DNA from: an uncultured Streptococcus sp.
GTDB taxonomy: Bacteria; Bacillota; Bacilli; Lactobacillales; Streptococcaceae
Reading direction: 5' to 3'
Assembly: GCA_963527705.1 (NCBI GenBank)
Contig: CAURTW010000001.1
Span: 1-50,597, forward strand
Length of the DNA: 50,597 nt
The position numbers were made by a program, and so were the translations under genes. The first letter of the stretch is position 1, and the number at the start of each line of letters is the position of its first letter. The notes below the pieces were generated by a model. That model was not told the DNA's origin, did no database searches, and saw nothing but the letters and a program-made list of their open reading frames with translations. This document shows positions 11,365 to 35,197 of the stretch, piece after piece.

Positions 11365-11399
11365 AAAAACACTGCCAGATTTCTAGCAGTGTTTTGAGT
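11365..11399 (-). terminator. Terminator after msmK
   Basis: aaaacactgc...gcagtgtttt inverted repeat. Confidence 0.7.
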
Positions 11400-11409
11400 T
11401 TTATTTATC

Positions 11410-12540: not shown

Positions 12541-12580
12541 CGAGGTGAACTCCTTTTGTCTTTTGATAGTTTTATTATAG

Positions 12581-12596
12581 ATGAAAACGTTTTACA
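12581..12596. promoter_or_regulatory. Putative CcpA cre site at msmK promoter
   Basis: ATGAAAACGTTTTACA resembles WTGNNARCGNWWWCAW and lies next to minus-strand -10 TATAAT (12574-12579). Confidence 0.6.
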
Positions 12597-12653
12597 TTTC
12601 TATGGCAAGGTGACCAAAAAAATAAAAAAGTTCTGTGCAACTTGCACAAAACT

Positions 12654-13523: not shown

Positions 13524-13526
13524 GCC

Positions 13527-13913
13527 CTAGCCCTCCACTTTTTGGATACACCATGAAATTAAGCTCTCAAGACGTTCCAGATTTTCAGTCATGTGGAGAT
13601 AGCCCATGACTGCTTCAAAACCTGTGGACATACGGTAAGTCACCACATCAGCATTTTTGGCCTTGGTGTGGCTATTGGTATTGCGACCACGTTTGTAGAT
13701 TTCTTCTTCTTTTTCCGTCAGGACTTGCTCCTCTAACATAAGGGAAATCAGGCGGGCCTGAGCCTTGGCTGAGACATACTTTGTCGCCTCTTGGTGGAGT
13801 TTATTGGGCTTGGTCATACCTTTTAAAATGAGGTGACGACGAATATACATAGAATACACCGCGTCCCCCTCAAAAGCTAACGCAATCCCGTTAATGAGAT
13901 TGACATCAATCAC
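13527..13913 (-). CDS. mrnC: Mini-ribonuclease III
   Basis: LAFEGDAVY, KRGRN and TGFEAVMGYL motifs, follows cysS. Confidence 0.92.
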   Translation of the reverse strand: MIDVNLINGIALAFEGDAVYSMYIRRHLILKGMTKPNKLHQEATKYVSAKAQARLISLMLEEQVLTEKEEEIYKRGRNTNSHTKAKNADVVTYRMSTGFEAVMGYLHMTENLERLESLISWCIQKVEG

Positions 13914-15249: not shown

Positions 15250-15330
15250 AAATCATAGTCAGGAAATCCAAAATCCAAGAACAATTAGTTTCATCACTAA
15301 GAGTTCAATTGAATTTCAGTCCGAATGTCT

Positions 15331-16215
15331 CTACACTTCGGAATCCCTTGCTCCTTTCGCATTCAGATAAACCACTTGGGTTTGTTTGACAAAGCCAATC
15401 TTTTCATATAAGCGCTTGGCACCTACATTGCTATCTTCCACTGCAATCTGAAATTCCTTATCATTTTGCTCAATTAGTTGGTTGACAAGGGATTTTGCTA
15501 AGTAGCTTCCATAGCCTTTCCCACGTTCAGGTTCAGATATTGCTAAACCGTAGAAGTAATTCGTATTAGTCGATAAATCTACCGTGCAAGTTCCAATAAC
15601 CTGACCGTCTTTTAACAAAATATATAAGCGACTTTCTGGATCCTTCAGAGCTTCAGCGACATATCTATCCACAACTTCTCTCGATTCATGTTCCTCTGAG
15701 AATGCCTGAAATTTTAACTGACTAATTTGCTCCTGATACGAACTATCTGCTAACAAAACTTCAAGATTAGAAACATTTGCTAACGGATAAGGTTTTCTAT
15801 CCTTGCCTAACCAAGTTTCTGTATCCTCGTCCTCGACCAATCCCCAGTTGCTGGCAAAATCAGGATGACGTTCTAGAAAAATACGTTCTGTCTGAAAAGT
15901 CACTGAACGAATAGAGAAAGAAGCCGTTTCTTTCTCAAAACTAGTAAACAATGCACGCGCAATTCCCTGATGGCGATGATCTGGATGAACCAGTATCGTC
16001 ACTTCCACATCTTGGTCATCAGCATAGACAGTTAAGAGACCAACAAGTTCGCCTTTTTCATAATAAAGGAAAAAGGCGGGCATGTTTGGGTCAAAATTAA
16101 GCATGTTAGAAAGATAGGGATCACGATAGGTACCGTCATAGTTTTGGCAATAGTTAATTAGTTTTTTCGCCTCAGATAGCTCCTCTTGGCTTAACTTGTT
16201 TCTTGCTTGAATCAT
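15331..16215 (-). CDS. Tandem GNAT acetyltransferase
   Basis: Two acetyl-CoA motifs (RHQGIA, RGKGYG) and LYEKIGF. Confidence 0.85.
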   Translation of the reverse strand: MIQARNKLSQEELSEAKKLINYCQNYDGTYRDPYLSNMLNFDPNMPAFFLYYEKGELVGLLTVYADDQDVEVTILVHPDHRHQGIARALFTSFEKETASFSIRSVTFQTERIFLERHPDFASNWGLVEDEDTETWLGKDRKPYPLANVSNLEVLLADSSYQEQISQLKFQAFSEEHESREVVDRYVAEALKDPESRLYILLKDGQVIGTCTVDLSTNTNYFYGLAISEPERGKGYGSYLAKSLVNQLIEQNDKEFQIAVEDSNVGAKRLYEKIGFVKQTQVVYLNAKGARDSEV

Positions 16216-16226
16216 ATAGGTACCCT

Positions 16227-16844
16227 CTACAAACCAGACGATCTGTGACTGGCATCTTTAGATTGCTCGAGTTTATTGACGTAGTACTCTCGTTTTTCTT
16301 CGACTTCGTGGATCGTCGGTTCATCCTTCTGTCCATGAACTCGGACAATCTTAGCCGGAATACCGACAACCGTCACATCACTAGGTACGTCTGCCACGAC
16401 AACTGCTGCTGCACCGACCTTGGCATTTTCACCAATTTCCACTGGTCCAATGACTTGGGCATGAGCGGATATTAAAGCTCCTTTTCGCACGGTTGGATGG
16501 CGTTTGCCACAGTCTTTTCCTGTCCCACCAAGAGTTACTCCGTGGTAAAGCATAACACCTTTTTCAACAATCGCAGTCTCTCCGATAACCAGGCCTGAAC
16601 CATGGTCAATAAAGACTCCAGAGTCGATTTGAGCACCTGGATGAATCTCAATCTGAGTCCAAAAGCGCCAAAACTGACTGTGCATACGAGCCAAGAGTTT
16701 AAAGCCATGCTTCCAGAGAAAATGCGAGAGACGGTGGGCAGCCAAGGCCTTGACACCTGGATAGGTCAGTAGAACCTCCAAACTGGTGCGTGCCGCTGGA
16801 TCATTTTCTTTTACAATATCAATGGTTTCGCGCCACCATCCCAT
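16227..16844 (-). CDS. cysE: Serine O-acetyltransferase
   Basis: DPAA, EIHPGA, FIDHG and KRHP motifs with hexapeptide repeats. Confidence 0.95.
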   Translation of the reverse strand: MGWWRETIDIVKENDPAARTSLEVLLTYPGVKALAAHRLSHFLWKHGFKLLARMHSQFWRFWTQIEIHPGAQIDSGVFIDHGSGLVIGETAIVEKGVMLYHGVTLGGTGKDCGKRHPTVRKGALISAHAQVIGPVEIGENAKVGAAAVVVADVPSDVTVVGIPAKIVRVHGQKDEPTIHEVEEKREYYVNKLEQSKDASHRSSGL

Positions 16845-16859
16845 ACATTTCTCCTTTTC

Positions 16860-19073
16860 TTATTCTGAATCTTTTGGTGTTTCTGTAAATTCTTTCTTAG
16901 GTTTGTGGTCCTTGTGATGACGTGGACGGTGAGGTCGCTCAGACTTTTCGCCTTTTTCATCATGCTCAGGTTTTGGCGGACGAGGAAGAAGAGCTTTCAT
17001 AGAGGCATCGATACGTCCTTTTTCATCAATCTTGATAACCTTAACATCAACTTCATCCCCGATTGCTACCAAGTCTTCGACATTATTGGTACGCGTCCAA
17101 GCCATCTCAGAGATATGAACAAGGGCATCTGTCTTATCAAAGAGGTTAACAAAGGCACCAAATTTCTCGATACGAACGACTTTAGCACGGTAAACTTCAT
17201 CCACTTTGGCTTCACGGACCAAACCAGCAATAATTTCTTTAGCACGGTTAATAGCATCTTGGTCGCTAGAGTAGATAGATACATTTCCTTCTTCGTCGAT
17301 ATCAATCTTAACGCCTGTTTCAGCGATAATCTTGTCGATGGTTTCTCCACCCTTACCGATGACAATCTTGATCTTGTCCACATCAATCTTGATGGTATCA
17401 ATTTTCGGAGCAGTTGGAGCCAATTCTGGACGAACTTCTGGAATGGTTGCTTCAATCACATCAAGGATTTCAAAACGCGCTTTCTTGGCTTGAGCAAGAG
17501 CCTCAGTCAAGATTTCTGCAGTAATCCCTTGAATCTTGATATCCATTTGAAGGGCTGTAATCCCCTCACGAGTACCCGCAACCTTGAAGTCCATGTCTCC
17601 AAAGTGGTCTTCCAAACCTTGGATATCGGTCAAGACAGTGTAGTTGTTTCCATCTGAGATAAGTCCCATGGCAATACCAGCTACTGGCGCCTTGATTGGC
17701 ACACCACCAGCCATAAGGGCGAGCGTTCCCGCACAGATAGAGGCTTGAGAAGATGAACCGTTTGATTCTAACACTTCAGCTACCAAGCGAATCGCGTATG
17801 GAAATTCTTCCAAACTTGGCAAGACTTGAGCAAGAGCACGTTCACCGAGAGCCCCATGACCAATTTCACGACGACCAGGCGCACCGTAACGACCAGTTTC
17901 CCCTACAGAGTATTGAGGGAAGTTATAGTGGTGCATAAAGCGTTTCTTGTACTCTGGATCCAAACCATCGATAATTTGAGTTTCACCCATTGGCGCCAAG
18001 GTCAAGACTGAAAGAGCCTGAGTTTGTCCACGAGTGAAGAGACCTGAACCGTGCACGCGAGGAAGGAAGTCAACAACCGCATCCAAAGGACGGATTTCAT
18101 CGACCTTACGACCGTCAGGACGCACCTTGTCTTCTGTAATCAAACGGCGCACTTCAGCGTGTTCCATTTGTTCCAAGATTTCAGCCACATCACGCATAAT
18201 ACGGTCAAATTCTTCGTGGTCTGCATATTTTTCTTCATACACCGCAGTCACTTGGTCTTTAACTGCTTGAGTCGAAGCTTCTCGAGCCAATTTTTCTTCT
18301 ACTTGGACAGCTTTTTGGAGGTCACTGTTGTAGGCTGCGATGATTTCAGCCTGCAAGTCAGCGTCTACATGAAGCAATTCCACTTCTGCTTTTTCCTTAC
18401 CAACTGCCGCAACGATTTCTTCTTGGAAGGCAATCAATTCTTTGACTGCTTCGTGCCCTTTGAGAAGGGCTTCCAACATGATTTCTTCTGACAATTCTTT
18501 GGCACCAGACTCTACCATGTTGATGGCGTGTTTGGTACCAGCTACTGTCAATTCAAGGAGAGATTGCTCTGCTTGTTCTTGCGTAGGGTTGATGATGATT
18601 TGACCATCTACATAGCCCACTTGCACCCCAGCAATTGGTCCGTCAAACGGAATATCTGAGATAGAAAGTGCCAAGGATGAACCAAACATAGCCGCCATTG
18701 GAGCAGAGGCATTTTCATCATAAGAAAGGACGGTGTTGATAACTTGGACTTCGTTACGGAAACCTTCCGCAAACATAGGACGGATTGGACGGTCAATCAA
18801 ACGCGCTGTCAAAGTCGCATCTGTTGAAGGACGTCCTTCACGTTTCATAAAGCCACCAGGAAACTTCCCAGCCGCATACATTTTTTCTTCGTAGTTGACT
18901 TGAAGAGGGAAGAAATCCCCAGTTGCCATTTTCTTAGACATAACGGCAGCAGTCAAGACAGTTGACTCACCGTAACGCACGACAACAGAGCCATTTGCTT
19001 GCTTAGCAACCTGACCAGTCTCTACAATTAACTCACGACCCGCAAAAGTCGTTTGAAACACTTGTTTTGTCAT
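16860..19073 (-). CDS. pnp: Polyribonucleotide nucleotidyltransferase
   Basis: Two RNase PH domains ([16 protein letters not shown]), KH and S1. True start MTKQVF at 19073. Confidence 0.97.
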
Positions 19074-19442
19074 TTTAATCCCCTTTGGATTGATGAAATT
19101 ATACGCCTTGCCTACAAAGATCAAGATATTTTGGACGGTTCGGCTTGCCGAACATTTCTGTAGAAAAATAGGAAGATGACGCCGCACTCGATGAGTGCTA
19201 GGAAGCTTATCTTTTTTCCTAAGAAATGAGGTCAAAATTCAATTAAGAATCTTTGATAGCGTGAAATATCTTTTAAATACTCACTCTGTTCGTGTTTTTT
19301 GAAACACACATTATCAGATTTTGTTTAAAAAATAATCAACTTTAAACAAACTTCTACAACCTAAATACCCTCATCTTTGTATCAAGTACGTACAGAGTCT
19401 ATTTTATCATATTTTTCTTAAAAAGTACGGGCTTTTCTATTA

Positions 19443-19486
19443 AAAAGGAACCATTCCCCTCACCTGAGAAGAATGGTTTGCTTTTT
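19443..19486 (-). terminator. Terminator after metF
   Basis: aaccattc...gaatggtt stem with A/T flanks. Confidence 0.6.
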
Positions 19487-19487
19487 A

Positions 19488-20354
19488 TTATCCTAAAGAC
19501 TGATGATTAAACAAGGCATGGGTTGCTTGGTGGATGTATTTTGCTGTTTCAGCATTGTTCATGGTGTATAGATGCACACCTGCGACATCTTGGGTTACCA
19601 AGTCCACGATTTGATCCACTGCATAGGCAAGTCCTGCTGCTCTGAGCGACTCAGGGTCATGCTCATACTTGTCTAAGATGGCTTTAAATTTGCGTGGAAG
19701 ATGGATATTCTCACAAGTCTTCAAGAGGCGGAGAGCCTGATTTCGATTCAGAATTGGCATAATCCCTGCATGAATGGGAACATCAATCCCAGCCAAGATG
19801 CACTTGTCTTGGAAATCATAGAAGCGCTCATTGTCAAAGAAGAGCTGAGTTACGAGGCTCGAACAGCCTGCATCCACTTTCTTCTTAAGATTTTGGATAT
19901 CTGAAATCTGATTTGGTGAATCTGGATGCCCTTCTGGATAGCAAGCACCAACAATATCAAAGTGAGGAGCTTGCTCCTTGATGAACTCAATCAAGTCAGT
20001 TGCGTAGCGGAAATCCTTTTGCGGCTCTACATCAGGGATAATATCCCCACGAAGAGCCAAGATTTTCTGTACCCCAACCTTATCCAAGTCGGCAATCGTT
20101 TCAGCCACCTTGTCCTTGGTCAAATAGATGGCTGGCAAGTGAGCAATAGTTGGAATCGCCAAGTCATTTTGGATAAAGTCAGCCAAACGAACCGTCGTTT
20201 CCTTGATATTAAATTTATTGTTGCTGGCAGTTACACTGATAAAGTGTGGTGCTAGCTCCTGCATATCTTGAAGAGCAGAAATAATTTTATCATTACCCAC
20301 AGCTGGGTTGGGAGGGAACACTTCAAATGAGAGTGACGGTGTTTGGCGTGACAT
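19488..20354 (-). CDS. metF: 5,10-methylenetetrahydrofolate reductase
   Basis: SFEVFPP, LALRGD, YPEGHP and TQLFFD motifs. Start at 20354 chosen from RBS spacing (20360 possible). Confidence 0.95.
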   Translation of the reverse strand: MSRQTPSLSFEVFPPNPAVGNDKIISALQDMQELAPHFISVTASNNKFNIKETTVRLADFIQNDLAIPTIAHLPAIYLTKDKVAETIADLDKVGVQKILALRGDIIPDVEPQKDFRYATDLIEFIKEQAPHFDIVGACYPEGHPDSPNQISDIQNLKKKVDAGCSSLVTQLFFDNERFYDFQDKCILAGIDVPIHAGIMPILNRNQALRLLKTCENIHLPRKFKAILDKYEHDPESLRAAGLAYAVDQIVDLVTQDVAGVHLYTMNNAETAKYIHQATHALFNHQSLG

Positions 20355-24999: not shown

Positions 25000-26607
25000 T
25001 CACCCTTTAAAATGCTTCAAGAACTCTTCGAGTTCAGCATCGGCTTCTGGTGTAGTTCCGTGGAGTTGACCGAGCATTTCGAGTAGGGAAGCGGTTTGGT
25101 TTTGGATTGCTTGATTTGTCGTGTTGATCTTGCTGACGATATCTGTCAGTGGTTCGACTTCTTCTTCCTCAAAGGTATCTACATAGCGAGGGATATTGAG
25201 GTTGTAGTCATTTTCAACGATTTCTTCATAACTCGCCAGATGGGCAAACTTGTCAATCTCCTCACGTGACTTGTAGGCTTCCAGAATCTTCTCGATATGA
25301 ACATCCGTCATGATATTCTGATTTTTCCCCTTATCAAACTCCTTAGAGGCATCGATAAAGTAGACATCACGACTGGTGCGGTTCTTTTTGAGAATGATAA
25401 CCGTGGTCGGAATGCTGGTATTAAAGAAGATATTGGCAGGAAGACCAATTACTGTATCAATAGCCCCTTCTTCTAACAAGGCCTTACGAATGGTTCCCTC
25501 CGCATTTCCACGGAAAAGAACCCCGTGGGGAAGGACGATAGCCATGACCCCATTATCCTGCTTGAGATGGTAGTAACCATGCAAGAGAAAGGCAAAGTCA
25601 GCCTTGGACTGGGGTGCCAGTTTTCCAAAAGGAGAGAAACGAGGATCCGCCATAAAGCCAGAATTAGCTGACCACTTGGCAGAGTAGGGTGGGTTCATGA
25701 GAACACCGTCAAAGTTAGTCGGTTCTTGAGTCGGCCAGTCTTCATCCAAGGTATCGGCATTGTGGAGAAATTGATTTTCAACTGGAACACCGTGTAGAAT
25801 CATGTTCATTCGAGCCAAGTTATAGGTTGAGGTATTGAGCTCCTGACCAAAGTAGACCACTGTCTGCGGTTTATGAGAGTATTTCTTGGCATTGAGCAAG
25901 AGAGAGCCAGACCCCATAGTCGCATCATAGATGGTAAAACCTAGCTGGTCCTCACGACCCAAAAAGGCAATCTGAGTCATGAGTTTGGCAACAGGTTGAG
26001 GTGTATAGAACTCACCAGCCTTCTTACCCGAGTCAGTCGCAAACTGACCAATCAGATACTCATAAGCATCCCCAAGCATATCACCAGCATGACCAGCCAC
26101 ATCTAGCACAGCCAACTCTTTCATGACTGCCGCCACCGTTTGGTTTTGCTTTTGCGGAGTTGCCCCTAGCTTTTTGGAATAGAGGTCAATATCTTCAAAG
26201 AGATTTTCATAGAGTTCATCACTCTGCTCGATATCTCGAAAACCCTGAGCCAAATATTCTAACTGAAAAGAATTTTCATTGACACGTGCTAGCAGAGCCG
26301 TAAATGTCAGGTTAGGCTTGATGATATAGTTAAGCTCATCTTTTATAACAGATACCAGATCTTCATGAGTCTCCGCATCCTCGTAGTAATTGCGATAGAC
26401 CTCAAGGGCATCCTCAAGACTATCTATCCCCTCTTCCATGGTCTCAGCCACGAAAAAGAGCATCTTGTCTGACAGATACTTATAAAAGACCATGCCCAAA
26501 AGATAGGACTTATATTCATTAGCATCCATCTTAGAGCGGAGAACATCCGCTGAATCCCACAGGGCTTGGGAGAGTGACTTGGAAGTTTGTGTTGTTTCTT
26601 TAATCAT
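25000..26607 (-). CDS. hsdM: Type I R-M methyltransferase subunit (m6A)
   Basis: GEFYTP, DATMGSG (motif I), NPPY (motif IV), GVLFRG and YNLNIPRYV. Confidence 0.96.
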   Translation of the reverse strand: MIKETTQTSKSLSQALWDSADVLRSKMDANEYKSYLLGMVFYKYLSDKMLFFVAETMEEGIDSLEDALEVYRNYYEDAETHEDLVSVIKDELNYIIKPNLTFTALLARVNENSFQLEYLAQGFRDIEQSDELYENLFEDIDLYSKKLGATPQKQNQTVAAVMKELAVLDVAGHAGDMLGDAYEYLIGQFATDSGKKAGEFYTPQPVAKLMTQIAFLGREDQLGFTIYDATMGSGSLLLNAKKYSHKPQTVVYFGQELNTSTYNLARMNMILHGVPVENQFLHNADTLDEDWPTQEPTNFDGVLMNPPYSAKWSANSGFMADPRFSPFGKLAPQSKADFAFLLHGYYHLKQDNGVMAIVLPHGVLFRGNAEGTIRKALLEEGAIDTVIGLPANIFFNTSIPTTVIILKKNRTSRDVYFIDASKEFDKGKNQNIMTDVHIEKILEAYKSREEIDKFAHLASYEEIVENDYNLNIPRYVDTFEEEEVEPLTDIVSKINTTNQAIQNQTASLLEMLGQLHGTTPEADAELEEFLKHFKG

Positions 26608-26634
26608 AAATCTAATTTTTTTCTTTCTTTCTTT

Positions 26635-28227
26635 TTAAACTACTGGAATTTTTAAAATTGAATAATTAAATCCCATGCTTTTTAATTGTTGAATCGCATT
26701 GAATAAATTAACCATTGAAAAGAATGGTAATATATCAGAATTTTTTACTCCTCCTTTTACTCGTTTATCTAAAATTGCAAATACAATTTCCAACTCATTA
26801 TTTGTCTCTGATAGATTCAGTATTTTACAACCGCATTTTTTATTAATGAATTTTTTCATTTTAATATCCTGAGCTAATATAGTGGCAGACACAACACCCT
26901 GAGAAAATAAATGACTTAATTTTGACGAAGAACCTCCTTTTTTTACATGAATTAACTTTTTGTCTTTGGTCACAATATCTGCCACTTCAACACTACTTCT
27001 TCCATAGCTATCCCCATGATACATTTCTTTATCCAATATATAGTAATCTGGATGACTTGCAGAAAATGCTTTATTAAAATCTCCTTCACTCTGTCCATTA
27101 GAAGCTAGGAGAACAATTGGAATCATAGTATCCACAATATTATCAATTTCAGTTTTTATAGTATTAAAAAATTTTTTATTAATTTTATACCAAGAACCAT
27201 AACATAAAATATATTTTTCTTTGTTATAATCTATTTCGAAAATTAATGATGAATATAAGCTTCCAACTATACTTTCCTCATCTGTGTCTTTATATTTGGT
27301 AACTAATTTATTCCGTTTTAAAGACGATATAAGAGAGCTATTTGATTTATTTTTTCCTATTGTTGAGAAATATGCATTCGAATCAATTTCAATTGAAAAC
27401 TCTTTTTCTCTTTTTCCAGTTCCAGTAAGAAAAAAGCCTTCTATATTCTCCCAATCAAGTAAAGTATTAGGAGCAATAGTTGGATAGTGCCCCGTTGTTA
27501 TCTCTAGGTATAATTGATTATCTAAATCGGATTTTAAATTTTTTTCTCTCACTTCCAAGATATTATCAAGCCATGAAAAACCATTGTTTTTATAATCATC
27601 TTTTTTATAACTACTAAAATAATAATCAATACTTTCTTTAATATCAGTTATACTCATTTTTCGACTAGCTACTAAACTATCTGTTCCTACCAGAAATGTT
27701 GCCACACTTTCCTGACTAGGTGCTCCAGAAACGGATTGTAGTAAATTTTTTCGAGTATCTAAATCAAATATATCTTGAGAAGCATAAATTGAACTTTGTC
27801 TTTGGGATGAGACTATGACATCTTCAATGCTAGTTATATTCATACTTCTTATTTTATCTTTATCAATTAGATTTGCCGCTACTTTCAAACCAAAATTTCT
27901 AACTATTTTTAAATCATTTAGCATTGATCTGCCATAACCATAAGTTATACTAAAAAACCTATTTCTTAGCTTCACTACAACCACGGCTTTATTGGGAACA
28001 TTTTCAGAAAACTTTATTTTTAGGGCAGATAGTTGATTTAACTCATCCTGCCAAGAAGGCAATTTAGGATCTGATTTCTGAACAAATATTTTCCCATTTA
28101 GTCCAATTTTACTATTTAATGGGTATTCATCATACTTAATCTTATTTTTTAGACAGTCTTCAAATTTTTTAACTGATTTGCTATTAAGAAACAAAGAAAT
28201 TTGAGTCGTTTTTAATCTTTTCGTCAT
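26635..28227 (-). CDS. TIGR04141/DUF6119-like protein with C-terminal PD-(D/E)xK-like nuclease motif
   Basis: TYGYGRSML, NFGLKVAAN, GSWYKI and VEVADIV...LIHVK...SSKLSHLFSQG. Strongly AT-rich. RBS ggag precedes ATG 28227. Confidence 0.7.
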   Translation of the reverse strand: MTKRLKTTQISLFLNSKSVKKFEDCLKNKIKYDEYPLNSKIGLNGKIFVQKSDPKLPSWQDELNQLSALKIKFSENVPNKAVVVVKLRNRFFSITYGYGRSMLNDLKIVRNFGLKVAANLIDKDKIRSMNITSIEDVIVSSQRQSSIYASQDIFDLDTRKNLLQSVSGAPSQESVATFLVGTDSLVASRKMSITDIKESIDYYFSSYKKDDYKNNGFSWLDNILEVREKNLKSDLDNQLYLEITTGHYPTIAPNTLLDWENIEGFFLTGTGKREKEFSIEIDSNAYFSTIGKNKSNSSLISSLKRNKLVTKYKDTDEESIVGSLYSSLIFEIDYNKEKYILCYGSWYKINKKFFNTIKTEIDNIVDTMIPIVLLASNGQSEGDFNKAFSASHPDYYILDKEMYHGDSYGRSSVEVADIVTKDKKLIHVKKGGSSSKLSHLFSQGVVSATILAQDIKMKKFINKKCGCKILNLSETNNELEIVFAILDKRVKGGVKNSDILPFFSMVNLFNAIQQLKSMGFNYSILKIPVV

Positions 28228-28240
28228 AGTCTCTCCAATC

Positions 28241-29473
28241 TTAAACAAACATATCTTTCAAAAGTTTCTTTTTCAAGGTTTCAAGCTGAGAAATTTTTTC
28301 TTGATGAGCATCGATGAGGTTATCGAGGTTGGTGAAGCATGTGCCGATGGCCTGTTGTTCAGCTATTGATGGTAAATAAAATGGAATCTCCGAAAAAGTT
28401 GGAAACTGTACACGTTGTTTTTCAATTAGTGTTCCTGTAGCAAACTGTTTATATTGATAAATTGCGTACGTTGTTTTCAATAGAATTTTTAAAAAATCAT
28501 TATCAAATTTTTCTACATCTGTATTTTTCATCACAACATAATAACCAGAAACTGAAATAGTAACTTCATTGTTATTTAAATCCAAAGCACCCAATGTAAG
28601 ATTCATTGGATTATAAACAAACTCATTTAAGTCAACCTTTTTAAATTTGTCATTCTTTTTTACCAAAAAATCTCTTTTATAACGATCTGTTTTAGGTGTT
28701 AATCCCTTTTCGACTGTTAAGCTCCATAACTCGTTTTCTACAGAAGGTTCAGTGTAATTTGATACTTGTTCAAAAACATCACCTAGGTAATACTTCTCCC
28801 ACTCTCCTTCAAATCCTTCCAAACGAATCTCAGATACTGTCTGTCCAGCTTTCGGGAACATCTTGGAGAGCATGCTCGTTTTGAGAGATTGGTAGTTAGC
28901 AATATTATCCTTGTAGTAAGCCAAAAGGTCATCAAGGGTACGGAAGAGGGAGCCGATTGCGGATTGTTCAGGGAGAGATGGGACACTCATTTTCATACTT
29001 TTCAATATTGCACTAGATAAATTTCCAATCGCACCATTTCCGCCTTGTACAAATTGTAACACTCTTTTATACTCATTTGAACTCATCCAAGCATTTACGA
29101 AGGAATTCTGCTCAGTTTTAAACAATAACATAAAACCACCATGGACAACTATTTCATCACCTGGTAAATTCTTTATAATTGCATGTTTTCCGACTAGCTT
29201 AGTGGATCCATTAGCTGCAGTTACTAAAATATCTCCATTGCTTACTCGGGGAATATTTATCACATCTTTACTTACAAACACATCATCATCTGATATCACG
29301 AAGGAATCATCTACTATGTTCGAGCTTCTTAAAACCCGTGCTCCCTTACTTCTTACGTCGGTTGGTTTATAGGTCAGACCTCTTCTTACTTCTACTTGAG
29401 ATAATAACGAAGACGTCCGCCAATAATTGTTAAAATTATCAAATCTTAAAATAGGTAAGATTTTCTCTTCCAT
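28241..29473 (-). CDS. hsdS: Type I R-M specificity subunit, two TRDs
   Basis: Repeated conserved regions PSLPEQSAIG...MLSKMF and PSIAEQQAIG...LLKDMF, with PILRF and EIRLEGFEGEW linkers. Confidence 0.95.
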   Translation of the reverse strand: MEEKILPILRFDNFNNYWRTSSLLSQVEVRRGLTYKPTDVRSKGARVLRSSNIVDDSFVISDDDVFVSKDVINIPRVSNGDILVTAANGSTKLVGKHAIIKNLPGDEIVVHGGFMLLFKTEQNSFVNAWMSSNEYKRVLQFVQGGNGAIGNLSSAILKSMKMSVPSLPEQSAIGSLFRTLDDLLAYYKDNIANYQSLKTSMLSKMFPKAGQTVSEIRLEGFEGEWEKYYLGDVFEQVSNYTEPSVENELWSLTVEKGLTPKTDRYKRDFLVKKNDKFKKVDLNEFVYNPMNLTLGALDLNNNEVTISVSGYYVVMKNTDVEKFDNDFLKILLKTTYAIYQYKQFATGTLIEKQRVQFPTFSEIPFYLPSIAEQQAIGTCFTNLDNLIDAHQEKISQLETLKKKLLKDMFV

Positions 29474-29488
29474 TTATTTTTTCTCCAT

Positions 29489-32068
29489 TCACAAACTATA
29501 TTTTTTATGTAGAGTAGTCGCAAATTTCCTTATTGCAGTATTAAGTTCTTGTTTATAGATCAATTTAATTTTGTTATTCTTGAGAGGATACTCTTCATAA
29601 TTTGCTGTGTCTTTTAGAGCCGTTTCTCCAAATTGTTTTTCATTTTTATTTTCAACATCAAAATTTAGTACATAAAAAGTCAACGCTTGGCTATCAACTG
29701 CCCATGTTTTAGCAAATTCATTGATTTCTTTTTCAATGTTTTTTGCCTCAACATAATTTACTTTATCTACATCTTCGGAGTGTTTTAATTTATTTTCAGA
29801 AATATACTTTAAAATCGCATCAAAGACATCATTTTTTGTTTCAAAAGATATTTTTTTAGTATTAGTATTTTCTCGATTATCTTCAATACTTTCTTCTCCC
29901 CTACTTATCTTATGATTATTTATATAAGTAAAGCCTAAAGTACCTTTCGAGTCTTTGTCTTTCTTATTTTCTATATTTCTAATCTCCTCACGCTTTTTAT
30001 CATTTGCTTCTTGTTGTATGTTTTGTGCATCAACCCACATATTTAACAGTGACATCTCTTCGCCATTATATGTAATATATCTAAGATTAGGAACAACATC
30101 AAATATTAATTTTTGACTATCATCAAAAACTGATATTTCTATTTCAATCAGATTGGATAAATATTGGGTTTTATCTGTTTGATTATTATCATCAAACTTA
30201 AATAACGATGAAAATCTACAAGTATCGGTCTCTCCTTTTATTTCATTTGTTTTCTCTGACAAAGATACACCAAGCAATTTTAAGCATCTAATTTTTGGCG
30301 AGAGAATAATTCCAGTGATAATTGGATCCACATCTACTTCCTGAGCATCAAGAATGAATGTTGACACATTGGGAAAGTAAATATCGTAACCAAACTCACT
30401 ATTTTCTGGATAATCCAATTCAATATAGCGACTATTACTAACAAAATTTAGCAAAGAATAATCTATCTTAATATTTTCATTTTCACGAATTATTATTTTT
30501 TTCAAAGTATTACTAATTATATTTTTAGAAGCAATGATATTTACTATATGTTCCTCAATGATATTGTTTTTACACATTTCAAAATATTCAATAGTCTGAA
30601 GCTGACTGATATCAATCTCAACGTTTTCAACACCATCACAATAAATTACACAATTACTAATTTTTATTTTTCTACATTTTTCAGTACTTGAAATTAAATT
30701 TTTTAGTTTCTCAATACTTAACGATGAGTTTGTAATTTCAATAGATTCACTATTTTTTATACATTCAATAAACTCTTTCATATCAAACAACTCATCCAAA
30801 AGCAACCTATCATCAGATTTTGCTCCAACTCCATCAATTATTACATGAAGTTTTTCATTGTATGTTTCTTTTATATCTAAAAAACTTAAAATCTTTTTTA
30901 AAGATTCGCACTCTATAATACTCGATATTTTTAAATATTGAAACTGATTGAATATAAAAAGTTTATTAGTCAGTATGAATTTGTCAAAAGGATATATTAT
31001 CGGCAAAGATACATTGAACATTCTTTTCAATAATTCAATATCATTATTGTCCAGCTGAATTGAAGTAGTATTATTGCCTCCAAATTCTAAATTTTTTTCA
31101 CTATCTTTAACCAAAATATCATAGAATGGTACTAAAACTATTTTTTCTAAGATATCGGTATTCAAAATTTTATTAATCTTTTGTAATTTGATTAGATAAT
31201 CATTACCAAAATAAAACAAATAAATTCTTTTTGATTTTTCAAATATTTTTGACAAGAATGGCAAATCACTTCCATAAATAGAGTGACCTATAATATAGGT
31301 ATCAACTGAATTTTTCTTATATTTCTTTATTTTCTCTATCAATTGACTGCGTTTCTCAAATAAAGACGTATCTTTTTTTATTCGAATCAGTTTGTCATTG
31401 TCCATAGAACCTGGAACATTAAACCCGCTGTACTCTTCATTCCCAGTGAATCCACCTCCAAAAATAATGTTCTTATCAAATAAAGATCCGTGTACTTGAA
31501 AGTATTTTTGATTGCTATTATTCCCAGTTTGAACTAAGTTTAAATCATATAAAGTACTTGTATAATTAAAGTTAATTACGTCAGCATTTTTAAATATATT
31601 TTTATAAACCTCATTAACTACCAAACTGCTTTTATTATTTCTTTGAACTCTGTATGAATTATGCCATTTCTCGTAAAAATCAGACAAATAGGACGAAAAT
31701 AAGTCTTCTAACTCTTTAAGATACGCATTTATTTCGGTAACACTATATATACTCCTGATTTCATCGTCACTATTATAAGTTATCTCATTAATTTCTTTAA
31801 TATGATTTTCAAAAATTGACTCTAAATCGTTCCAATTTAATGATTTTCCATCAAATTTTTGTAAAAATAATTTATTAAAATTATAAATATCTTCATTTGT
31901 TTCAAGTTTCTCTTCAACCCTTAAATACTCTACAAAATTATTATACGAACTTTTTATCCCCACACTGATATCAAATCCGTTACCTACTATAATCATTTTA
32001 GGATTATTTGAATTAGCATTGATTACATCAAAGTCTGCTAATTCGTTTTCAATAATATCTTCAGACAT
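29489..32068 (-). CDS. AbiH/SIR2-like domain protein with LRR-like middle region and HsdR-C-terminal-like tail
   Basis: N-terminal IIVGNGFDISVGIKSSY, INFNYT, QVHGS and IIGHS...D motifs. C-terminal 82 aa align with the HsdR C-terminus. Strongly AT-rich. Confidence 0.8.
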   Translation of the reverse strand: MSEDIIENELADFDVINANSNNPKMIIVGNGFDISVGIKSSYNNFVEYLRVEEKLETNEDIYNFNKLFLQKFDGKSLNWNDLESIFENHIKEINEITYNSDDEIRSIYSVTEINAYLKELEDLFSSYLSDFYEKWHNSYRVQRNNKSSLVVNEVYKNIFKNADVINFNYTSTLYDLNLVQTGNNSNQKYFQVHGSLFDKNIIFGGGFTGNEEYSGFNVPGSMDNDKLIRIKKDTSLFEKRSQLIEKIKKYKKNSVDTYIIGHSIYGSDLPFLSKIFEKSKRIYLFYFGNDYLIKLQKINKILNTDILEKIVLVPFYDILVKDSEKNLEFGGNNTTSIQLDNNDIELLKRMFNVSLPIIYPFDKFILTNKLFIFNQFQYLKISSIIECESLKKILSFLDIKETYNEKLHVIIDGVGAKSDDRLLLDELFDMKEFIECIKNSESIEITNSSLSIEKLKNLISSTEKCRKIKISNCVIYCDGVENVEIDISQLQTIEYFEMCKNNIIEEHIVNIIASKNIISNTLKKIIIRENENIKIDYSLLNFVSNSRYIELDYPENSEFGYDIYFPNVSTFILDAQEVDVDPIITGIILSPKIRCLKLLGVSLSEKTNEIKGETDTCRFSSLFKFDDNNQTDKTQYLSNLIEIEISVFDDSQKLIFDVVPNLRYITYNGEEMSLLNMWVDAQNIQQEANDKKREEIRNIENKKDKDSKGTLGFTYINNHKISRGEESIEDNRENTNTKKISFETKNDVFDAILKYISENKLKHSEDVDKVNYVEAKNIEKEINEFAKTWAVDSQALTFYVLNFDVENKNEKQFGETALKDTANYEEYPLKNNKIKLIYKQELNTAIRKFATTLHKKYSL

Positions 32069-32206
32069 TTATATGAATACCTCTCTATTTAGTTCTTAAT
32101 TACTCTAATAAATAACTTCGACTAAACTATTATATTTATTTAAGCTCCGATTATTGTATTTTTAACTGAGAAATCTAAACAAGTGTTTAACTACAGTTTT
32201 AAAACT

Positions 32207-35197
32207 CTATCTCCCCACTCTGAGTGGGTCAATGACTTCTTCAACAAGTTGCTTACAAGCCTCCTTGATTTGTTTTTTATAGAGGAGGGGATTGAGGGCG
32301 TCCGCCACCTCTAGTTTATAGTCTTGATAGCGCTGGCTCTTGGTCAGCTGGCTTTCTCCTAGTTGTTTTTTAGCTCCCTTACGGTAGTGTTCGACATAGT
32401 AACGGAGTTCATCCTCGCCGACATACCAGCGCTTGCTAAAGACTTGGATGTGTTGCTGGATGACAGCCTCTATCATCTGATCCAAAATATTTGCGATAGA
32501 CTGACCACGATAGCTTTCCGGATGTTCTTGTACCTCTCTCCAAAGTTCAGTGATGATCTGGGCAAGATTTGGATTGGTCTTCTCAAGACTCTGAATATAG
32601 TTATTCACCGCTTCCTTATCTTGAGCGCTTAGGTTCTTTTCTTGACTCTGGCCTTGCTCAATCAAGCTTTGGATCAAGGTTAAGATATAGGCATAGTTGA
32701 TTTCGTCTACTTGGATAGACTCCAGTTCATAGTGGATATCAAGTGGCTCTCCATCGTCATCATCCTCTACTCGGCTTTTTAATTCTGCAAGGACATTTCG
32801 ATAAAGTCCCAGATACCTTTCCAACTTTTCTCCATCAAGTCCCATCTGACTGTAAAGCTCTTCCTCATCATACTCTTTATACACTCGGATAGAGGCTAGG
32901 TATTTATCAAAGGCTTGATAGGTTTTAGCTAGTTTCCTCAACTCAGGCGTAGAGACTTGCTCAAAATCTAGACCATTCACATAGTCATCAGTAACAAGAT
33001 TTTTGAAATCACTGCAACTCCGTAAAAAGTTCCTCTTTTCCTCTTCCCAACTCGGGGCTAGGACCTCGTTTTCACCACCATTTGAGTAGAGCTTGAGGGC
33101 ATTATCTACTGCTTCCTTAAAGGCTAGAGGCTTTTGGAAGGTGATGATATGACCATAGGTCTTACTGCTATCAAAAATACGGTTGGTTCGGCTAAAGGCC
33201 TGTATCAAGTCCTGCGGTTGCATGGGTTTGCGGTCAATAAAGAGAGTCGATAGACAAGGCGCATCAAATCCCGTTAAGAGACGATTGACAACGATGACTA
33301 AGTCCAACTGCTCCTTGCGATAGAGGTATTTATCCTGCTTTCGAGCTAGACGGTTATTGACATCCGTATTAAAGCCACGCAGATCCGCCATGGTAAAGTG
33401 GGTATCAAACTCTTGGTTGTAGTCCTCCATGACCTGCTTCATGTGGTCTTGGTAGCCGATGGATTCTTCCTCATTTTCAGACACCGAGTAAGTGATGGTA
33501 AACTTTGGAAAATCTGGCAAATGGCGTTTGACCCGCTCGGAGACCTTGACCCGCTCCTTGCCAGCGAGTATGCTCTTGAGCAGATTATAATAAGCCTGTG
33601 CTCGTGGGATGGACTTGACTGTCAAGATAGCCTCATAGCTCTTTCCGACCCCTTTAGGGATATTGAGCTGTTGCTGACTCTTATTGAGGATGGCATCTAG
33701 AACCTCTAGCATGTGCTCCTTGTCCTCATAGGCCTGGTCTGGAATCTCTTCTTCTAGGAGATCTGAGATGATGGTATTGCGGTAGTCGACCTTAAAGCCC
33801 AGAACCGCTCCATCATGAATGGCTTCCTTGACCGTGTACTCATGGAGACGGTCACCGTACTGTTGCTGGGTGGTTTGGGCAAGGTCTCCCACCTGCTGGC
33901 GTTTATTTTCCTTAAAGATGGGTGTGCCTGTAAATCCATACCAGAGGGACTGAGGGAAAAAGGATTTAATGTCTTTTTGTGTTTGTGGAGTCACGGCACG
34001 GTGGCATTCATCCACGACAAAGGCCACTCGGAGACCCTTGATTTTGTCCGCATCTCTTTGGTAAATTCCTTGTTCAAACTTGCGCATCATGGTGGTGATT
34101 TTCTGGATAGTGGTCACCACCACACGCTTATCATTACTTCCTAAACGCTTGACCAAATCATGGGTATTATCTGTCTCATCGATATCAATGACATCATTGG
34201 TCGCATAGGAGAGAAATGATGAGGTAGTCTGTTGGTCCAAGTCCCTGCGGTCAACGACAAAAATTGTTTTTTGGATAGAAGGAATCTGAAGGAGATTCCT
34301 CGCTACCTTATAGGAAGTCAGAGTCTTTCCTGAACCTGTCGTATGCCAGACATAGCCTGATGCTTGCTGGCGAGAGGCTTCTTGAACTGCTTCGATTGCG
34401 TGGATCTGATAGGGGCGCAAGAGGATGAGAGATTTCTTGCTATCATCAATAACAGAATACTGCATGACCATCTGATGGGCACGAGGGATAGAAAGGACTT
34501 CGTGGGCAAAGCTAGTCAGATTTGTCACAGGATGATTGTTCTTATCCACCCACTTGGTTAGAAATTGCTTGTTAAGTTTATTTTCACGAGCTGCAGCGAT
34601 ATAGCGAGTATCAACCTTGTTGGTCACAACAAACATCTGCAAGCTAGAGTAGATACCACGGAATTTCCCTTCACGGTCATATTTTTTTATCTGATGAAAA
34701 GCATCGATAAATGCTGCTTGGGAGCTCTTGAGCTCGATTTGAATCATAGGTAAGCCGTTGATGAGGAGAGTAACATCCAGTCTACGGTCTTGATCCAGAG
34801 GATTTACTTTTTCTCGTTGGACTTGATTGACAACTTCATAGCTAGACTTTCCAGCTGCGATATTGTCTCGCCAGATAACGGATAATCGGATGGTTCCTAG
34901 GCTTGCATCCTCTCTTTGAACCTCGACTTTGGCAATGCCGTTTTCACCGACCAACCACTTGGCAGCATCGTAGTAGCTGATAAAGTTGAGTTGGTTTTTT
35001 ATCTGGCGTTTTTCCTGCTCTGTCAAAGGATGGTCTGCTAGTAGGGCTACGTTGTTTTGGGCTAGTTTCTCAAAGAAGTTCTCCCATAGTTGTTCTTCTG
35101 TTTTTAGGTCTTCTCGATAAGTCCATTGACTTTCCCCAGTTACCAGTTGGTTAATCAGTTGTTTTTCTATTTCCAGTTCTGGTTTTACCTGCATCAT
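32207..35197 (-). CDS. hsdR: Type I R-M restriction subunit (EcoR124I-like)
   Basis: Nuclease [15 protein letters not shown] and QIKKY, Walker [26 protein letters not shown] and QAFSRTNR. Confidence 0.96.

Follow-up and report, generated by a model that had tools for sequence, protein, structure and literature searches.

An AbiH-family protein encoded within a streptococcal Type IC hsd locus ends in a diverged HsdR C-terminal domain

Introduction

The physical coupling of an abortive-infection (Abi) effector to a restriction enzyme has been an open question since PrrC/EcoprrI. The window analyzed here, 50,597 nucleotides from an uncultured Streptococcus sp. (assembly GCA_963527705.1, contig CAURTW010000001.1, positions 1 to 50,597), raises it in a concrete form: why does an 859-aa protein of an Abi family, encoded among the genes of a Type I restriction-modification system, end in a segment that resembles the C-terminus of the neighboring HsdR? 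An initial annotation, made by reading the letters of the window, offered two answers: the tail either plugs the effector into an HsdR site of the methyltransferase or serves as bait for phage anti-HsdR proteins. We report a computational analysis of the locus, of the effector and its tail, and of the predicted docking partner.

Results

Organization of the locus

The abiH-long gene is embedded in a Type IC hsd locus with the one-strand order hsdR, abiH-long, hsdS, DUF6119, and hsdM, the gaps being 138, 15 (from the abiH-long stop to the hsdS start), -8, and 27 nt (Table 1), and related loci showed the same pattern. The operon structure is taken from this spacing because a scan for promoters and terminators did no better than chance (50 promoter-like sites vs 37.4 ± 6.8 in shuffles). 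HsdR contained the Pfam domains HSDR_N, SWI2_SNF2, ResIII, a T1R_D3-like domain, and EcoR124_C (residues 712-972), matched PADLOC REase_I at 1.3e-161, and could be aligned over residues 136-779 with EcoR124I HsdR (2w00). By its Pfam family and the surrounding genes, the adjacent protein is of the AbiH family and sits inside a Type I operon, as the initial annotation had read it. The DUF6119 gene is variable cargo and no part of the tail finding; its slot holds different genes in related loci.

Table 1. Window coordinates of the genes, protein domains, and segments discussed in the text
Feature	Positions	Strand	Basis
hsdR, Type IC-like restriction/motor subunit, 996 aa	32207..35197	-	Pfam, PADLOC, 2w00 alignment
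HsdR C-terminal domain, segment homologous to the effector tail	32228..32596	-	tail-profile match 1.9e-21, BLASTP 4e-6
abiH-long gene, 859 aa: SIR2-like AbiH, LRR-like solenoid, linker, HsdR-CTD-like tail	29489..32068	-	ORF, Pfam AbiH, homologues
N-terminal AbiH/SIR2-like Rossmann domain, aa 20-315, presumed NADase effector	31124..32011	-	Pfam, Foldseek, motifs
LRR-like beta solenoid, aa 320-673, possible sensor	30050..31111	-	AlphaFold2, Foldseek, dN/dS
Long helix (aa 674-706) and disordered low-complexity linker (aa 702-746)	29831..30049	-	pLDDT, dN/dS
HsdR C-terminal-domain-like tail, aa 747-859	29492..29830	-	five-helix model, hhalign, dN/dS
hsdS specificity subunit, 410 aa	28241..29473	-	Pfam Methylase_S; PADLOC Specificity_I 2.7e-79
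DUF6119/TIGR04141 gene, between hsdS and hsdM	26635..28248	-	Pfam DUF6119 2.4e-121; TIGR04141 3.1e-146
hsdM methyltransferase subunit, 535 aa, predicted docking partner	25000..26607	-	Pfam HsdM_N and N6_Mtase; TIGR00497; complex prediction
HsdM N-terminal-domain segment, aa 56-93, most predicted tail contacts	26329..26442	-	complex prediction

The effector body

Pfam AbiH (PF14253) matched residues 26-280 at 87.1 bits against a cut-off of 30.9 (E 2.7e-24, model positions 2-250 of 260). It was the only Pfam family found in the 859-aa protein, HSDR_N, SWI2_SNF2, and ResIII all being absent, and searches of PADLOC and NCBIfam gave no family. Oral streptococci encode full-length homologues of 845-881 aa. 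Foldseek matched the predicted structure to defence SIR2 proteins at probabilities of 0.96-1.00, including the SIR2 of SIR2-HerA (8uae_F, probability 1.00, E 1.6e-3) and ThsA (6lhx, probability 0.99), with E-values that are weak (1.6e-3 and above) because the query was the full-length model; further matches were the SIR2 dodecamer 8sxx, DSR2 8wyc, Avs5, KomC, and FAM118B. The GNGxD motif, N168 (FNYT), and H193 of an HGS motif were invariant in 18 homologues. N168 and H193 may form the SIR2 catalytic pair, and the domain is, from its fold and motifs, a presumed NAD+ hydrolase; excerpts of a 2026 review call AbiH sirtuin-like (PMC13064643).

In the AlphaFold2 model, this domain is followed by a solenoid (residues 320-673) of short strands in a 20-25-residue repeat with pLDDT mostly 80-94, and by a linker (residues 702-746) with pLDDT below 50. 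Foldseek on the solenoid-bearing model returned NLRC4, COI1, RP105, TLR4, CD14, and LRRC8, the matches to NLRC4, TLR4, CD14, and LRRC8 having probabilities of 0.47-0.98; Pfam gave no LRR match in the 859-aa protein.

The tail is a homologue of the HsdR C-terminal domain

BLASTP aligned effector residues 778-849 with HsdR residues 913-984 at 21/74 identical (28%) and 39/74 positive positions, with 4 gap positions in two gaps and an E-value of 4e-6 that refers to a single pairwise comparison. The alignment reproduced a count made earlier by hand (about 21 identities over about 75 positions, two short gaps), and its coordinates placed both segments at the C-termini, as claimed. The stretch originally delimited, 29489-29737, does comprise the last 82 codons and the stop, but the homologous domain is longer, covering residues 747-856 here and 150-202 aa elsewhere. 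When a profile of 18 AbiH-long tails was run against the six-frame translation of the genome (1.69 Mb), two places only were found, namely the tail itself (E 3.1e-35) and the C-terminus of HsdR (32228-32596, E 1.9e-21). At five Bacillus-type loci (Bacillus, Enterococcus, and Paenibacillus relatives), the tail and the neighboring HsdR C-terminus shared 36-43% identity in alignments of 150-202 aa that ran up to the last residue (E 3e-32 to 9e-38). The comparison of all AbiH-long tails with HsdR tails by hhalign gave 99.9% with an E-value of 1.1e-32 over 146 columns; another hhalign comparison of tails gave 97.2% and 3.7e-11. We conclude that the tail and the HsdR C-terminal domain are truly homologous, though diverged. 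A recent local duplication was rejected on the basis of the 28% identity and the differing base composition (GC of 0.26-0.31 over 29001-32000 vs 0.39-0.47 across hsdR), in line with the original description of the copy as AT-rich and diverged; an assembly artefact was rejected on finding the same architecture in many independent assemblies.

A real HsdR-domain homologue carried on a flexible linker is also what one would expect of a decoy, in which the tail mimics HsdR as bait for HsdR-attacking phage proteins, whose binding activates the effector with no docking on the M2S core. We consider this explanation highly improbable. At 28% identity to its own HsdR, the tail is strongly diverged and would be a poor decoy; the anti-restriction proteins known for Type I enzymes (Ocr, ArdA) mimic DNA and target the DNA groove of M2S, not the C-terminus of HsdR; the literature consulted mentioned no inhibitor of the C-terminal domain; and a tblastn search of 50,697 phage records with the whole 859-aa protein gave no match.

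Fold and family searches with the tail

AlphaFold2 modeled the tail as a five-helix domain (residues 747-856, pLDDT 83.9). An EcoR124_C-like Pfam match, expected in the initial annotation, failed to appear for the tail of the window alone at E ≤ 10, and one of 11 tails matched EcoR124_C (PF12008) with an E-value of 0.013, short of the cut-off; the link between tail and HsdR needs profile-profile comparison or better-preserved relatives. Searched alone against Pfam, the tail gave sub-threshold noise only (SWIB, CbiG_C, Tnp_P_element). A profile built from HsdR only (A4) did not list the AbiH tail of the window at E ≤ 10 and listed that of S. sanguinis at 4.6e-9. Against PDB sequences, phmmer returned penicillin-binding protein 4 only (E 0.2), and neither the AbiH-tail nor the HsdR-tail profile found an HsdR chain. 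Foldseek on the tail model likewise gave no HsdR chain (best E 0.95), and VIA-align (wide) gave none either, its best match being ion-channel helices at Z 5.5, within the noise of that tool for helical models. These Pfam, PDB, and fold negatives are weak because a bona fide HsdR tail profile also misses EcoR124I in the PDB. A weak match of the two tail profiles to yeast Vma12p/Vph2 (8eas_B, E 8.3e-5 and 0.054) was treated as chance.

A single-sequence scan of 1.84 billion representatives gave eight matches, six of which were the protein's own cluster or AbiH-long fragments; the other two were P0084 (1938 aa, three stretches, E 2.9e-8) and P0085 (178 aa, E 6.6e-4), which reads as an HsdR C-terminal fragment. 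In a word-indexed search of longer proteins, the tail profile recovered at least 45, mostly with Pfam AbiH, the rest being fragments that lacked Pfam annotation or bore the name 'hypothetical' or 'magnesium transporter'; no HsdR domain or name occurred among the matches listed. A search for other effectors with this tail had been proposed, and no third family was seen among 41 tail matches in 401 Bacilli genomes: the 30 loci that were checked comprised 27 HsdR bodies, two AbiH-long proteins, and one small fragment, and for the remaining 11 the size of the open frame was the sole criterion. Neither tail profile matched ORFs other than AbiH-long and HsdR in 20 genome loci and the window.

Linkage of tail-bearing AbiH proteins to hsd genes

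In all 20 genome-contig loci, hsd genes adjoin the AbiH gene, and an hsd locus also surrounds the long copies in 10/10 metagenome cases, in one further genome (G155), and on a Niallia taxi megaplasmid. Every tail-bearing copy with readable flanks thus lay in an hsd locus, and the expectation that tail-bearing homologues occur inside Type I loci, not mostly outside them, was borne out; the locus counts are not independent, given the close relationship among many of the streptococcal loci. Among tail-less AbiH-domain loci, any hsd-like match was seen in 3 of 70, and in 1 of the 24 that were at least 10 kb long. The tail-less ORFs of the metagenome search were 193-512 aa in length. That scan, aimed at the Vagococcus-type class, gave streptococcal-type long forms and short AbiH proteins.

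These data bear on a second explanation, that the tail is an independent module or leftover, gained from hsdR by recombination and having a general DNA-binding or oligomerization role or none, so that the effector would need no restriction enzyme to act, like TgvAB. Embedded defence genes can act without the host Type I system, as excerpts on TgvAB indicate (PMC11411939). In four pneumococcal/mitis loci, the same slot is occupied by a 494-aa AbiH-LRR protein that lacks the tail, so the tail is not required for residence in an hsd locus. In two loci the hsd genes are broken and the effector is intact (hsdR and hsdM interrupted in L001, hsdM split in L015), which is as expected of an independent module and argues against a guard that kills once the complex is lost. 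The HsdR C-terminal domain of EcoR124I, moreover, reportedly functions in DNA binding as well as assembly, going by the title of Grinkevich et al. 2018. Against these points, 67 of the 70 tail-less AbiH loci had no hsd-like gene nearby, and all long forms from seven genera (Streptococcus, Vagococcus, Enterococcus, Bacillus, Halalkalibacter, Paenibacillus, and Niallia) have retained the tail.

Class matching and selection

Streptococcal tails scored 31-44 bits with streptococcal HsdRs vs 18-34 with Bacillus-type HsdRs, and Bacillus-type tails scored 92-146 bits with HsdRs of their own class vs 25-45 with those of the other. By hhalign, each tail class was nearer to its own HsdR class (68.8 and 288) than to the other AbiH tail class (31.8). 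In the tree, a branch with 100/99 support united 11 AbiH tails and six HsdR tails, and a single clade of AbiH tails (one origin) was rejected (AU p 0.0014). The matching is at the level of the class only because, within a class, a tail was no closer to the neighboring HsdR than to the other HsdRs of that class. At the Vagococcus locus (L014), the tail had no match to the neighboring HsdR (E 0.7). Class matching would be expected of a faithful decoy as well; repeated matching to HsdR classes is hard to square with a generic DNA binder.

The tail had dN/dS values of 0.19-0.38 in nine of ten pairs, the solenoid had values of 0.14-0.42, and for the linker (residues 690-746) six of ten pairs gave 1.1-1.8 and three others 0.33-0.61. 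By these ratios, the tail is under purifying selection beside a neutrally evolving linker, which again speaks against an independent module or leftover; we judge that explanation quite unlikely.

Predicted docking on HsdM

Complex prediction for HsdM with the tail gave a score of 0.74, vs 0.00 for the best of three controls, in a multimer prediction of the kind proposed in the initial annotation. The score mark used was reached by 116/157 solved complexes and 2/215 mismatched pairs, counts that apply only approximately here because self-made alignments were used. The runs agreed in at least 96% of contacts, with a partner pLDDT of at least 79. Predicted contacts on the tail fell in residues 810-817 (EKQFGETA) and 834-840 (IKLIYKQ), motifs common to HsdR, and on HsdM in residues 56-58 and 80-93 of the N-terminal domain; the segment 56-93 belongs to those parts of HsdM that vary most and are class-specific. 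The predicted interface was not clearly enriched in identities between tail and HsdR (6/19 by hand count vs 21/74 overall), and a resemblance to EcoR124I R2M2S structures already solved (7bst, 7bto-7btr) may account for the score. For EcoKI, mutants in the surface of the HsdM N-domain lost restriction, which was taken as HsdR contact in the excerpted parts of the report (PMC2647291). A model that sets the tail confidently on HsdM also counts against the decoy explanation.

The same docking prediction could underlie a third alternative, a restriction regulator that occupies HsdR sites and adjusts the balance between methylating and cutting complexes (alleviation or establishment control) with no Abi role. 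According to excerpts of one paper, EcoR124I assembles via R1M2S with the second R subunit cycling, a mutation in the HsdR C-terminal region changes R1/R2 cycling, and Type IC restriction alleviation acts through assembly (PMC12707154), the last two of which would suit such a regulator. We nevertheless hold it to be very unlikely: the 740-aa SIR2-like and LRR body, which purifying selection has conserved together with invariant putative catalytic residues, exceeds what a competitor needs, and the AbiH family is named after an abortive-infection gene.

Discussion

A working model

We propose that the protein is a four-part Abi effector, consisting of an AbiH/SIR2-like presumed NADase, an LRR-like presumed sensor, a flexible linker, and an HsdR-type C-terminal domain, the domain that HsdR is thought to use for assembly on the M2S methyltransferase. 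Type IC enzymes hold the second HsdR weakly, which would leave a docking site free. Through its tail, the effector probably binds the M2S core where HsdR would, most likely on the cognate HsdM, at or overlapping the HsdR docking site. Of the two roles put forward at the outset, plugging into the methyltransferase has gained support, all of it indirect (hsd co-occurrence, class matching, purifying selection, and the HsdM prediction), and the role as bait has gained none. The effector would ride on the restriction complex and fire during infection, with depletion of NAD+.

For the trigger we tentatively favor, by analogy with PrrC, a guard that senses interference with the complex. Ranked second, and unlikely, is an alternative effector arm that would be fired when M2S meets unmodified DNA. 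A broader scheme, which we regard as doubtful, is that the M2S core is a shared platform with interchangeable arms, HsdR or a SIR2-LRR suicide arm, which use the same plug and the same HsdM site, so that the complex chooses cutting or killing and the plug has been re-matched to HsdR/HsdM classes at least twice. If the core is such a platform, the Vagococcus arrangement, with the effector beside an hsdM of its own class but lacking a matching hsdR, would represent a Type I-like system whose R subunit has given way to a NADase.

In this locus, the putative coupling device is legible in the sequence: an assembly domain taken from HsdR, tethered by a flexible linker, and of the same class as the local enzyme. 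Should the tail dock, HsdR C-terminal domains on non-HsdR bodies would provide a general rule for finding restriction-docked effectors, and the tail would offer a clean experimental handle. Immunity would then be layered, with first-line restriction and last-resort NAD+ depletion on one sensor complex, and the second HsdR site of Type IC enzymes, weak and subject to cycling, would gain a function. Restriction and abortive infection may share one platform.

Comparison with known systems

No described system with an AbiH-HsdR tail fusion was found in open-access papers and bioRxiv, in agreement with the initial annotation. Other defence cargo is known between hsd genes, as for TgvAB, Rlo genes, and Hma-embedded candidates in excerpts of PMC11411939, and DUF6261, AAA_21, Fic, and DUF6119 genes occupy such slots in related loci; unlike AbiH-long, the other cargo of these loci and of the window had no match to the tail profiles. 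TgvAB works without the hsd genes, with protection 10- to 100-fold lower for several phages than that of the whole cluster, by the same excerpts (PMC11411939).

The N-terminal fold is shared with ThsA, DSR2, SIR2-HerA, and Avs5, in which a large sensor or scaffold region is likewise fused to the effector, but the protein of the window has no SLOG, HerA, STAND, or DSR2-type partner domain. Its N-terminal part matches the model of lactococcal AbiH, predicted to be sirtuin-like, at 87 bits, to which about 540 residues are added (LRR-like solenoid, linker, and HsdR tail); tail-less AbiH-domain ORFs differ further in mostly having no Type I genes nearby. With the Type IC HsdR C-terminal domain, the tail shares an all-helical make-up and, in homology, the last 75-200 residues of the neighboring HsdR, inside and beyond its EcoR124_C match, yet it sits on a body with neither nuclease nor motor.

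A close precedent in arrangement is PrrC/EcoprrI, where an Abi effector gene likewise lies within a Type IC hsd locus. PrrC is an ABC-ATPase and anticodon nuclease, whereas the effector here is SIR2-like with no sequence relationship to it and would be coupled through a recognizable copy of the HsdR C-terminal domain. To our knowledge, no such copy has been reported for PrrC. According to excerpts of PMC12707154, PrrC is believed to be linked to the restriction enzyme and to fire upon interference with that enzyme, which is the behavior that we tentatively ascribe to the AbiH-HsdR tail fusion.

Organization of the operon

Five minus-strand ORFs lie head to tail in the window, separated by 138, 15, -8, and 27 nt, and hsdR, hsdM, and hsdS were all identified unambiguously. 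HsdR possesses HSDR_N, SWI2_SNF2/ResIII, T1R_D3-like, and EcoR124_C (712-972) Pfam domains, and EcoR124I HsdR aligns with it across 136-779; the system is thus Type IC-like. An AT-rich cassette at 26600-32100 (abiH-long, hsdS, and the DUF6119 gene; GC 26-37%) sits between hsdR and hsdM (39-47%), which suggests that the specificity gene travels together with its embedded cargo. Where the source gives a species name, the close relatives come from oral streptococci, namely S. koreensis, S. oralis, S. rubneri, and S. mitis. The DUF6119 gene, of a "sporadically distributed" type, is wedged between hsdS and hsdM, shares 8 nt with the end of hsdS, and gave no match in PADLOC; the same slot in related loci is occupied by an AAA_21 ATPase of 620 aa, by two unknown ORFs together (174-179 and 273-275 aa), or by one ORF of 186 aa. 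A second variable slot of the streptococcal operon lies between hsdR and abiH-long, where loci of the S. mitis/S. sanguinis type carry a DUF6261 gene of 269-277 aa (L005 9054-9863, L007 8952-9785, and L009 9054-9863).

Genes of the hsd operon and modelled segments of the abiH-long product
Feature	Position	Strand	Description
hsdR	35197..32207	-	996 aa; Pfam/PADLOC/NCBIfam
abiH-long	32068..29489	-	859-aa ORF
hsdS	29473..28241	-	Pfam/PADLOC/NCBIfam
DUF6119/TIGR04141 gene	28248..26635	-	537 aa
hsdM	26607..25000	-	Pfam/PADLOC/NCBIfam
Rossmann-type domain	~aa 20-315		AlphaFold2 model
Solenoid of short strands	aa 320-673		AlphaFold2 model
Long helix	aa 674-706		AlphaFold2 model
Disordered stretch	aa 702-746		AlphaFold2 model
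Five-helix bundle (tail)	aa 747-856		AlphaFold2 model

Homology of the effector tail to the HsdR C terminus

The initial annotation had aligned the end of the 859-aa effector with that of HsdR by hand, and BLASTP reproduced this alignment almost exactly (effector residues 778-849 versus HsdR residues 913-984, 21/74 identities, two short gaps, E 4e-6). As an unbiased control, a profile of 18 AbiH-long tails was searched against the source genome (1.69 Mb, six frames); it yielded only two matches, the tail (3.1e-35) and the HsdR C terminus at 32228-32596 (1.9e-21). The resemblance is confirmed and lies above chance. The decisive evidence of homology was provided by relatives: in five Bacillus-type loci the last 150-202 residues of the effector match the same stretch of the neighboring HsdR with 36-43% identity (E 3e-32 to 9e-38) and the alignments extend to the very end of both proteins. 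Profile-profile comparison of AbiH tails with HsdR tails gave 97.2% (E 3.7e-11) for the streptococcal sets, 100% (E 3.8e-50) for the Bacillus-type sets, and 99.9% (E 1.1e-32; 146 columns) for all sequences together.

The EcoR124_C-like Pfam match anticipated for the tail was not obtained in the window protein, and a search of PDB sequences with this tail returned nothing. Among 1.84 billion representative proteins it had eight matches, six being its own cluster or AbiH-long fragments and the other two a 1938-aa protein and a 178-aa fragment (E 6.6e-4) that reads as an HsdR C terminus. The homologous HsdR segment covers the end of the EcoR124_C match and beyond, and by position its counterpart in EcoR124I HsdR is probably the fifth domain, at the C terminus; this mapping is indirect because phmmer aligned the two HsdRs only to residue 779/798. 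Foldseek and VIA-align listed no HsdR chain for the tail model. The HsdR tail profile also missed EcoR124I in the PDB, so the missing fold match of the tail carries little weight. Both tail profiles weakly matched the yeast V-ATPase assembly factor Vma12p/Vph2 (8eas_B and 8eat_B; E 8.3e-5 and 0.035-0.054). The stretch matched was the F-x3-W/H...Y segment; chance is the probable cause, though the match recurred with two independent profiles.

Domain architecture and selection

Members of the AbiH-long family have 845-881 aa in streptococci and 781-956 aa in Enterococcus, Vagococcus, Bacillus, Rossellomorea, and others, and the C-terminal F-x3-W-x-V...Y-K tail is retained in all of them. The AlphaFold2 model of the 859-aa protein, built with an 18-sequence alignment, had a mean pLDDT of 72.8; the tail modelled alone had a pLDDT of 83.9. 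With the full model, Foldseek retrieved defense SIR2 proteins (SIR2-HerA 8uae_F, prob 1.00, E 1.6e-3; ThsA 6lhx, 0.99; DSR2, Avs5, and KomC) and a second group of leucine-rich repeat (LRR) proteins (NLRC4, COI1, RP105, TLR4, and CD14). G29-N30-G31-x-D33, N168, and H193-G-S are invariant across 18 homologues, and N168 and H193 would form the SIR2 catalytic pair. Independently, a 2026 review calls lactococcal AbiH sirtuin-like, with NAD+ depletion suggested (PMC13064643).

Pairwise dN/dS values were calculated by region for ten streptococcal pairs. They were 0.06-0.17 for the SIR2 domain (two pairs not computable owing to saturated dS), 0.14-0.42 for the solenoid, and 0.19-0.38 for the tail in nine pairs; the closest pair, in which changes are very few, gave 0.70 for the tail. 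The linker (690-746) gave 1.06-1.78 in six pairs and 0.33-0.61 in three. Low values in the tail beside high values in the linker argue that selection maintains the tail as a domain and that the leash carrying it evolves freely.

Linkage to Type I loci

In a set of 20 loci, one genome per species, hsd genes adjoined the AbiH gene in every case; many of the streptococcal loci are close kin, so that these counts are not independent, but the spread over at least seven genera is. The streptococcal order is hsdR, sometimes the DUF6261 gene, abiH-long, hsdS, variable cargo, and hsdM; that in Bacillus, Halalkalibacter, Paenibacillus, and Enterococcus is hsdM, hsdS, hsdR, and abiH-long, the last beginning 0-1 nt after hsdR in the two enterococci; and that in Vagococcus is abiH-long, hsdM, hsdM, hsdS, and hsdR. 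The linkage was also found in one further genome (G155), on a Niallia taxi megaplasmid, and in 10/10 long metagenomic copies, two of them frameshifted, versus any hsd-like match in 3/70 metagenomic loci with a short, tail-less AbiH domain (1/24 among those of at least 10 kb). The tail-bearing homologues with readable flanks lie inside Type I loci.

The exception is a group of four S. pneumoniae/S. mitis-type loci (L010, L011, L017, and L020) with a 494-aa tail-less AbiH-LRR protein in the same slot. It stops within the solenoid and is encoded between hsdS and the gene for an unusually long HsdR (1121-1122 aa, ~125 aa extra); in L010, L011, and L017 a gene of the Fic family, confirmed with Pfam for L010 alone, also lies antisense between hsdR and the AbiH gene. 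Type IV restriction genes border the Bacillus-type loci (McrB-like with MrcB_N and AAA_5, Mrr, and GmrSD; L012 13339-15903, L013 13722-16628, L018 12735-13763, and L015 1879-3795), which places the effector within a wider defense island. Other Bacilli (L028, L042, and L043) carry truncated remnants of the HsdR C terminus: a 672-aa frame without the N terminus, a 416-aa fragment beside a chaperonin gene, and a 93-aa ORF (122-aa open frame) that adjoins an ISL3 transposase.

Class matching of the tail and HsdR

Judged by sequence, HsdR C termini form classes, and the effector tail follows the class of its neighbor. BLAST bit scores of streptococcal tails were 31-44 against streptococcal HsdRs of 995-1029 aa, 22-30 or no hit against the 1122-aa streptococcal HsdR, and 18-34 against Bacillus-type HsdRs; those of Bacillus-type tails were 25-40, 25-45, and 92-146, respectively. 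With hhalign, the tail classes scored 68.8 and 288 against their own HsdR class versus 31.8 against the other AbiH tail class. Effector and HsdR of one class have a diagnostic motif in common, which is KQxGE for the streptococcal classes and P-I-P-N-I-G for the Bacillus class. The matching is at the class level only, the tail being no closer to its own neighbor than to other HsdRs of the same class.

The maximum-likelihood tree built from 18 AbiH and 11 HsdR tails contained a 100/99 branch that joined 11 AbiH tails with 6 HsdR tails. Forcing the AbiH tails into one clade was 28 log-likelihood units worse and was rejected (AU p 0.0014). Because the effector regions outside the tail are homologous across all family members, the tail has on two or more occasions either been swapped with hsdR or been copied from it anew. 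Both this class matching and the selection on the tail weaken the alternative that the tail is a leftover or a generic DNA binder.

The Vagococcus locus (L014) is an exception, with an E value of 0.7 between the tail and the neighboring HsdR. A separate, own-class hsdM starts 30 nt after the effector gene; its N-terminal domain is 36-48% identical to all others, whereas the second hsdM shares 72-77% identity with the Bacillus class. As a lead from a single case, this arrangement hints that HsdM is the relevant partner. The locus (9974-20046) contains two tandem hsdM genes of different classes, and its tail matches neither the neighboring HsdR nor the Bacillus class; upstream are an unknown ORF of 222 aa and the gene for a 1007-aa protein that resembles SF1 helicases (AAA_11/AAA_12).

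Predicted docking on HsdM

Complex prediction with controls, run from alignments of 12 rows for HsdM and 18 rows for the tail, gave a score of 0.74 versus 0.00 for the best of three controls, and the predictor judged the model to support binding. The score mark is reached by 116/157 solved complexes and 2/215 mismatched pairs, rates that are approximate here given the use of our own alignments. The runs agreed in at least 96% of contacts, with partner pLDDT values of at least 79. Confident tail contacts in the model (798, 802, 810-817, 819-820, 834-837, 839-840, and 843) cover EKQFGETA and IKLIYKQ, motifs common to HsdR, and those of HsdM lie at 56-58 and 80-93 in the N-terminal domain and at 222-223, 248-251, and 275-278. 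Conservation at the interface positions of HsdM is lower than over the whole protein (0.47 versus 0.69), and residues 50-100 are class-specific. The score may reflect likeness to solved EcoR124I rather than an independent prediction, because R2M2S structures exist (7bst and 7bto-7btr).

The C-terminal domain of EcoR124I HsdR reportedly takes part in DNA binding and assembly, going by the title of Grinkevich et al. 2018. Surface mutations of the EcoKI HsdM N-domain that abolish restriction were interpreted as marking an HsdR contact (PMC2647291). A review describes EcoR124I assembly via an R1M2S intermediate with reversible addition of the second R, a cycling that is changed by a mutation near the C terminus of HsdR (PMC12707154).

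Mechanism and comparison with known systems

The best-supported reading is that the tail would be an HsdR-derived plug that sets the SIR2-LRR effector on HsdM of the cognate methyltransferase core; the probable position is the second HsdR site, where binding is weak. The other branch of the initial annotation, in which the tail serves as HsdR-like bait for phage anti-HsdR proteins, found no specific support. A plugged effector could be a guard that needs a positive signal, as fits the PrrC precedent, or an alternative arm that fires once the core encounters unmodified DNA, as fits the Vagococcus arrangement. An effector lethal as soon as it is released is disfavored because abiH-long is intact in S. 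oralis SK1074 (L001 6849-9863 and 15446-17052), in which an in-frame stop interrupts hsdR and a frameshift disrupts hsdM, and in Enterococcus crotali (L015 3960-5554), where hsdM is split; these lesions may be real decay or sequencing errors.

The precedent is PrrC, an effector whose gene lies inside a Type IC locus and which is triggered by inhibition of the enzyme (PMC12707154); the likeness to abiH-long lies in the embedding of an effector gene in a Type IC(-like) locus. Type I-embedded genes can also act independently, TgvAB being an example (PMC11411939). We found no description of an AbiH/SIR2-HsdR-tail fusion in open-access papers and bioRxiv, in agreement with the earlier statement that no such system had been described. 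A restriction-linked abortive-infection effector is an already known kind; the novelty here lies in a coupling module that can be identified and is re-matched to each enzyme class.
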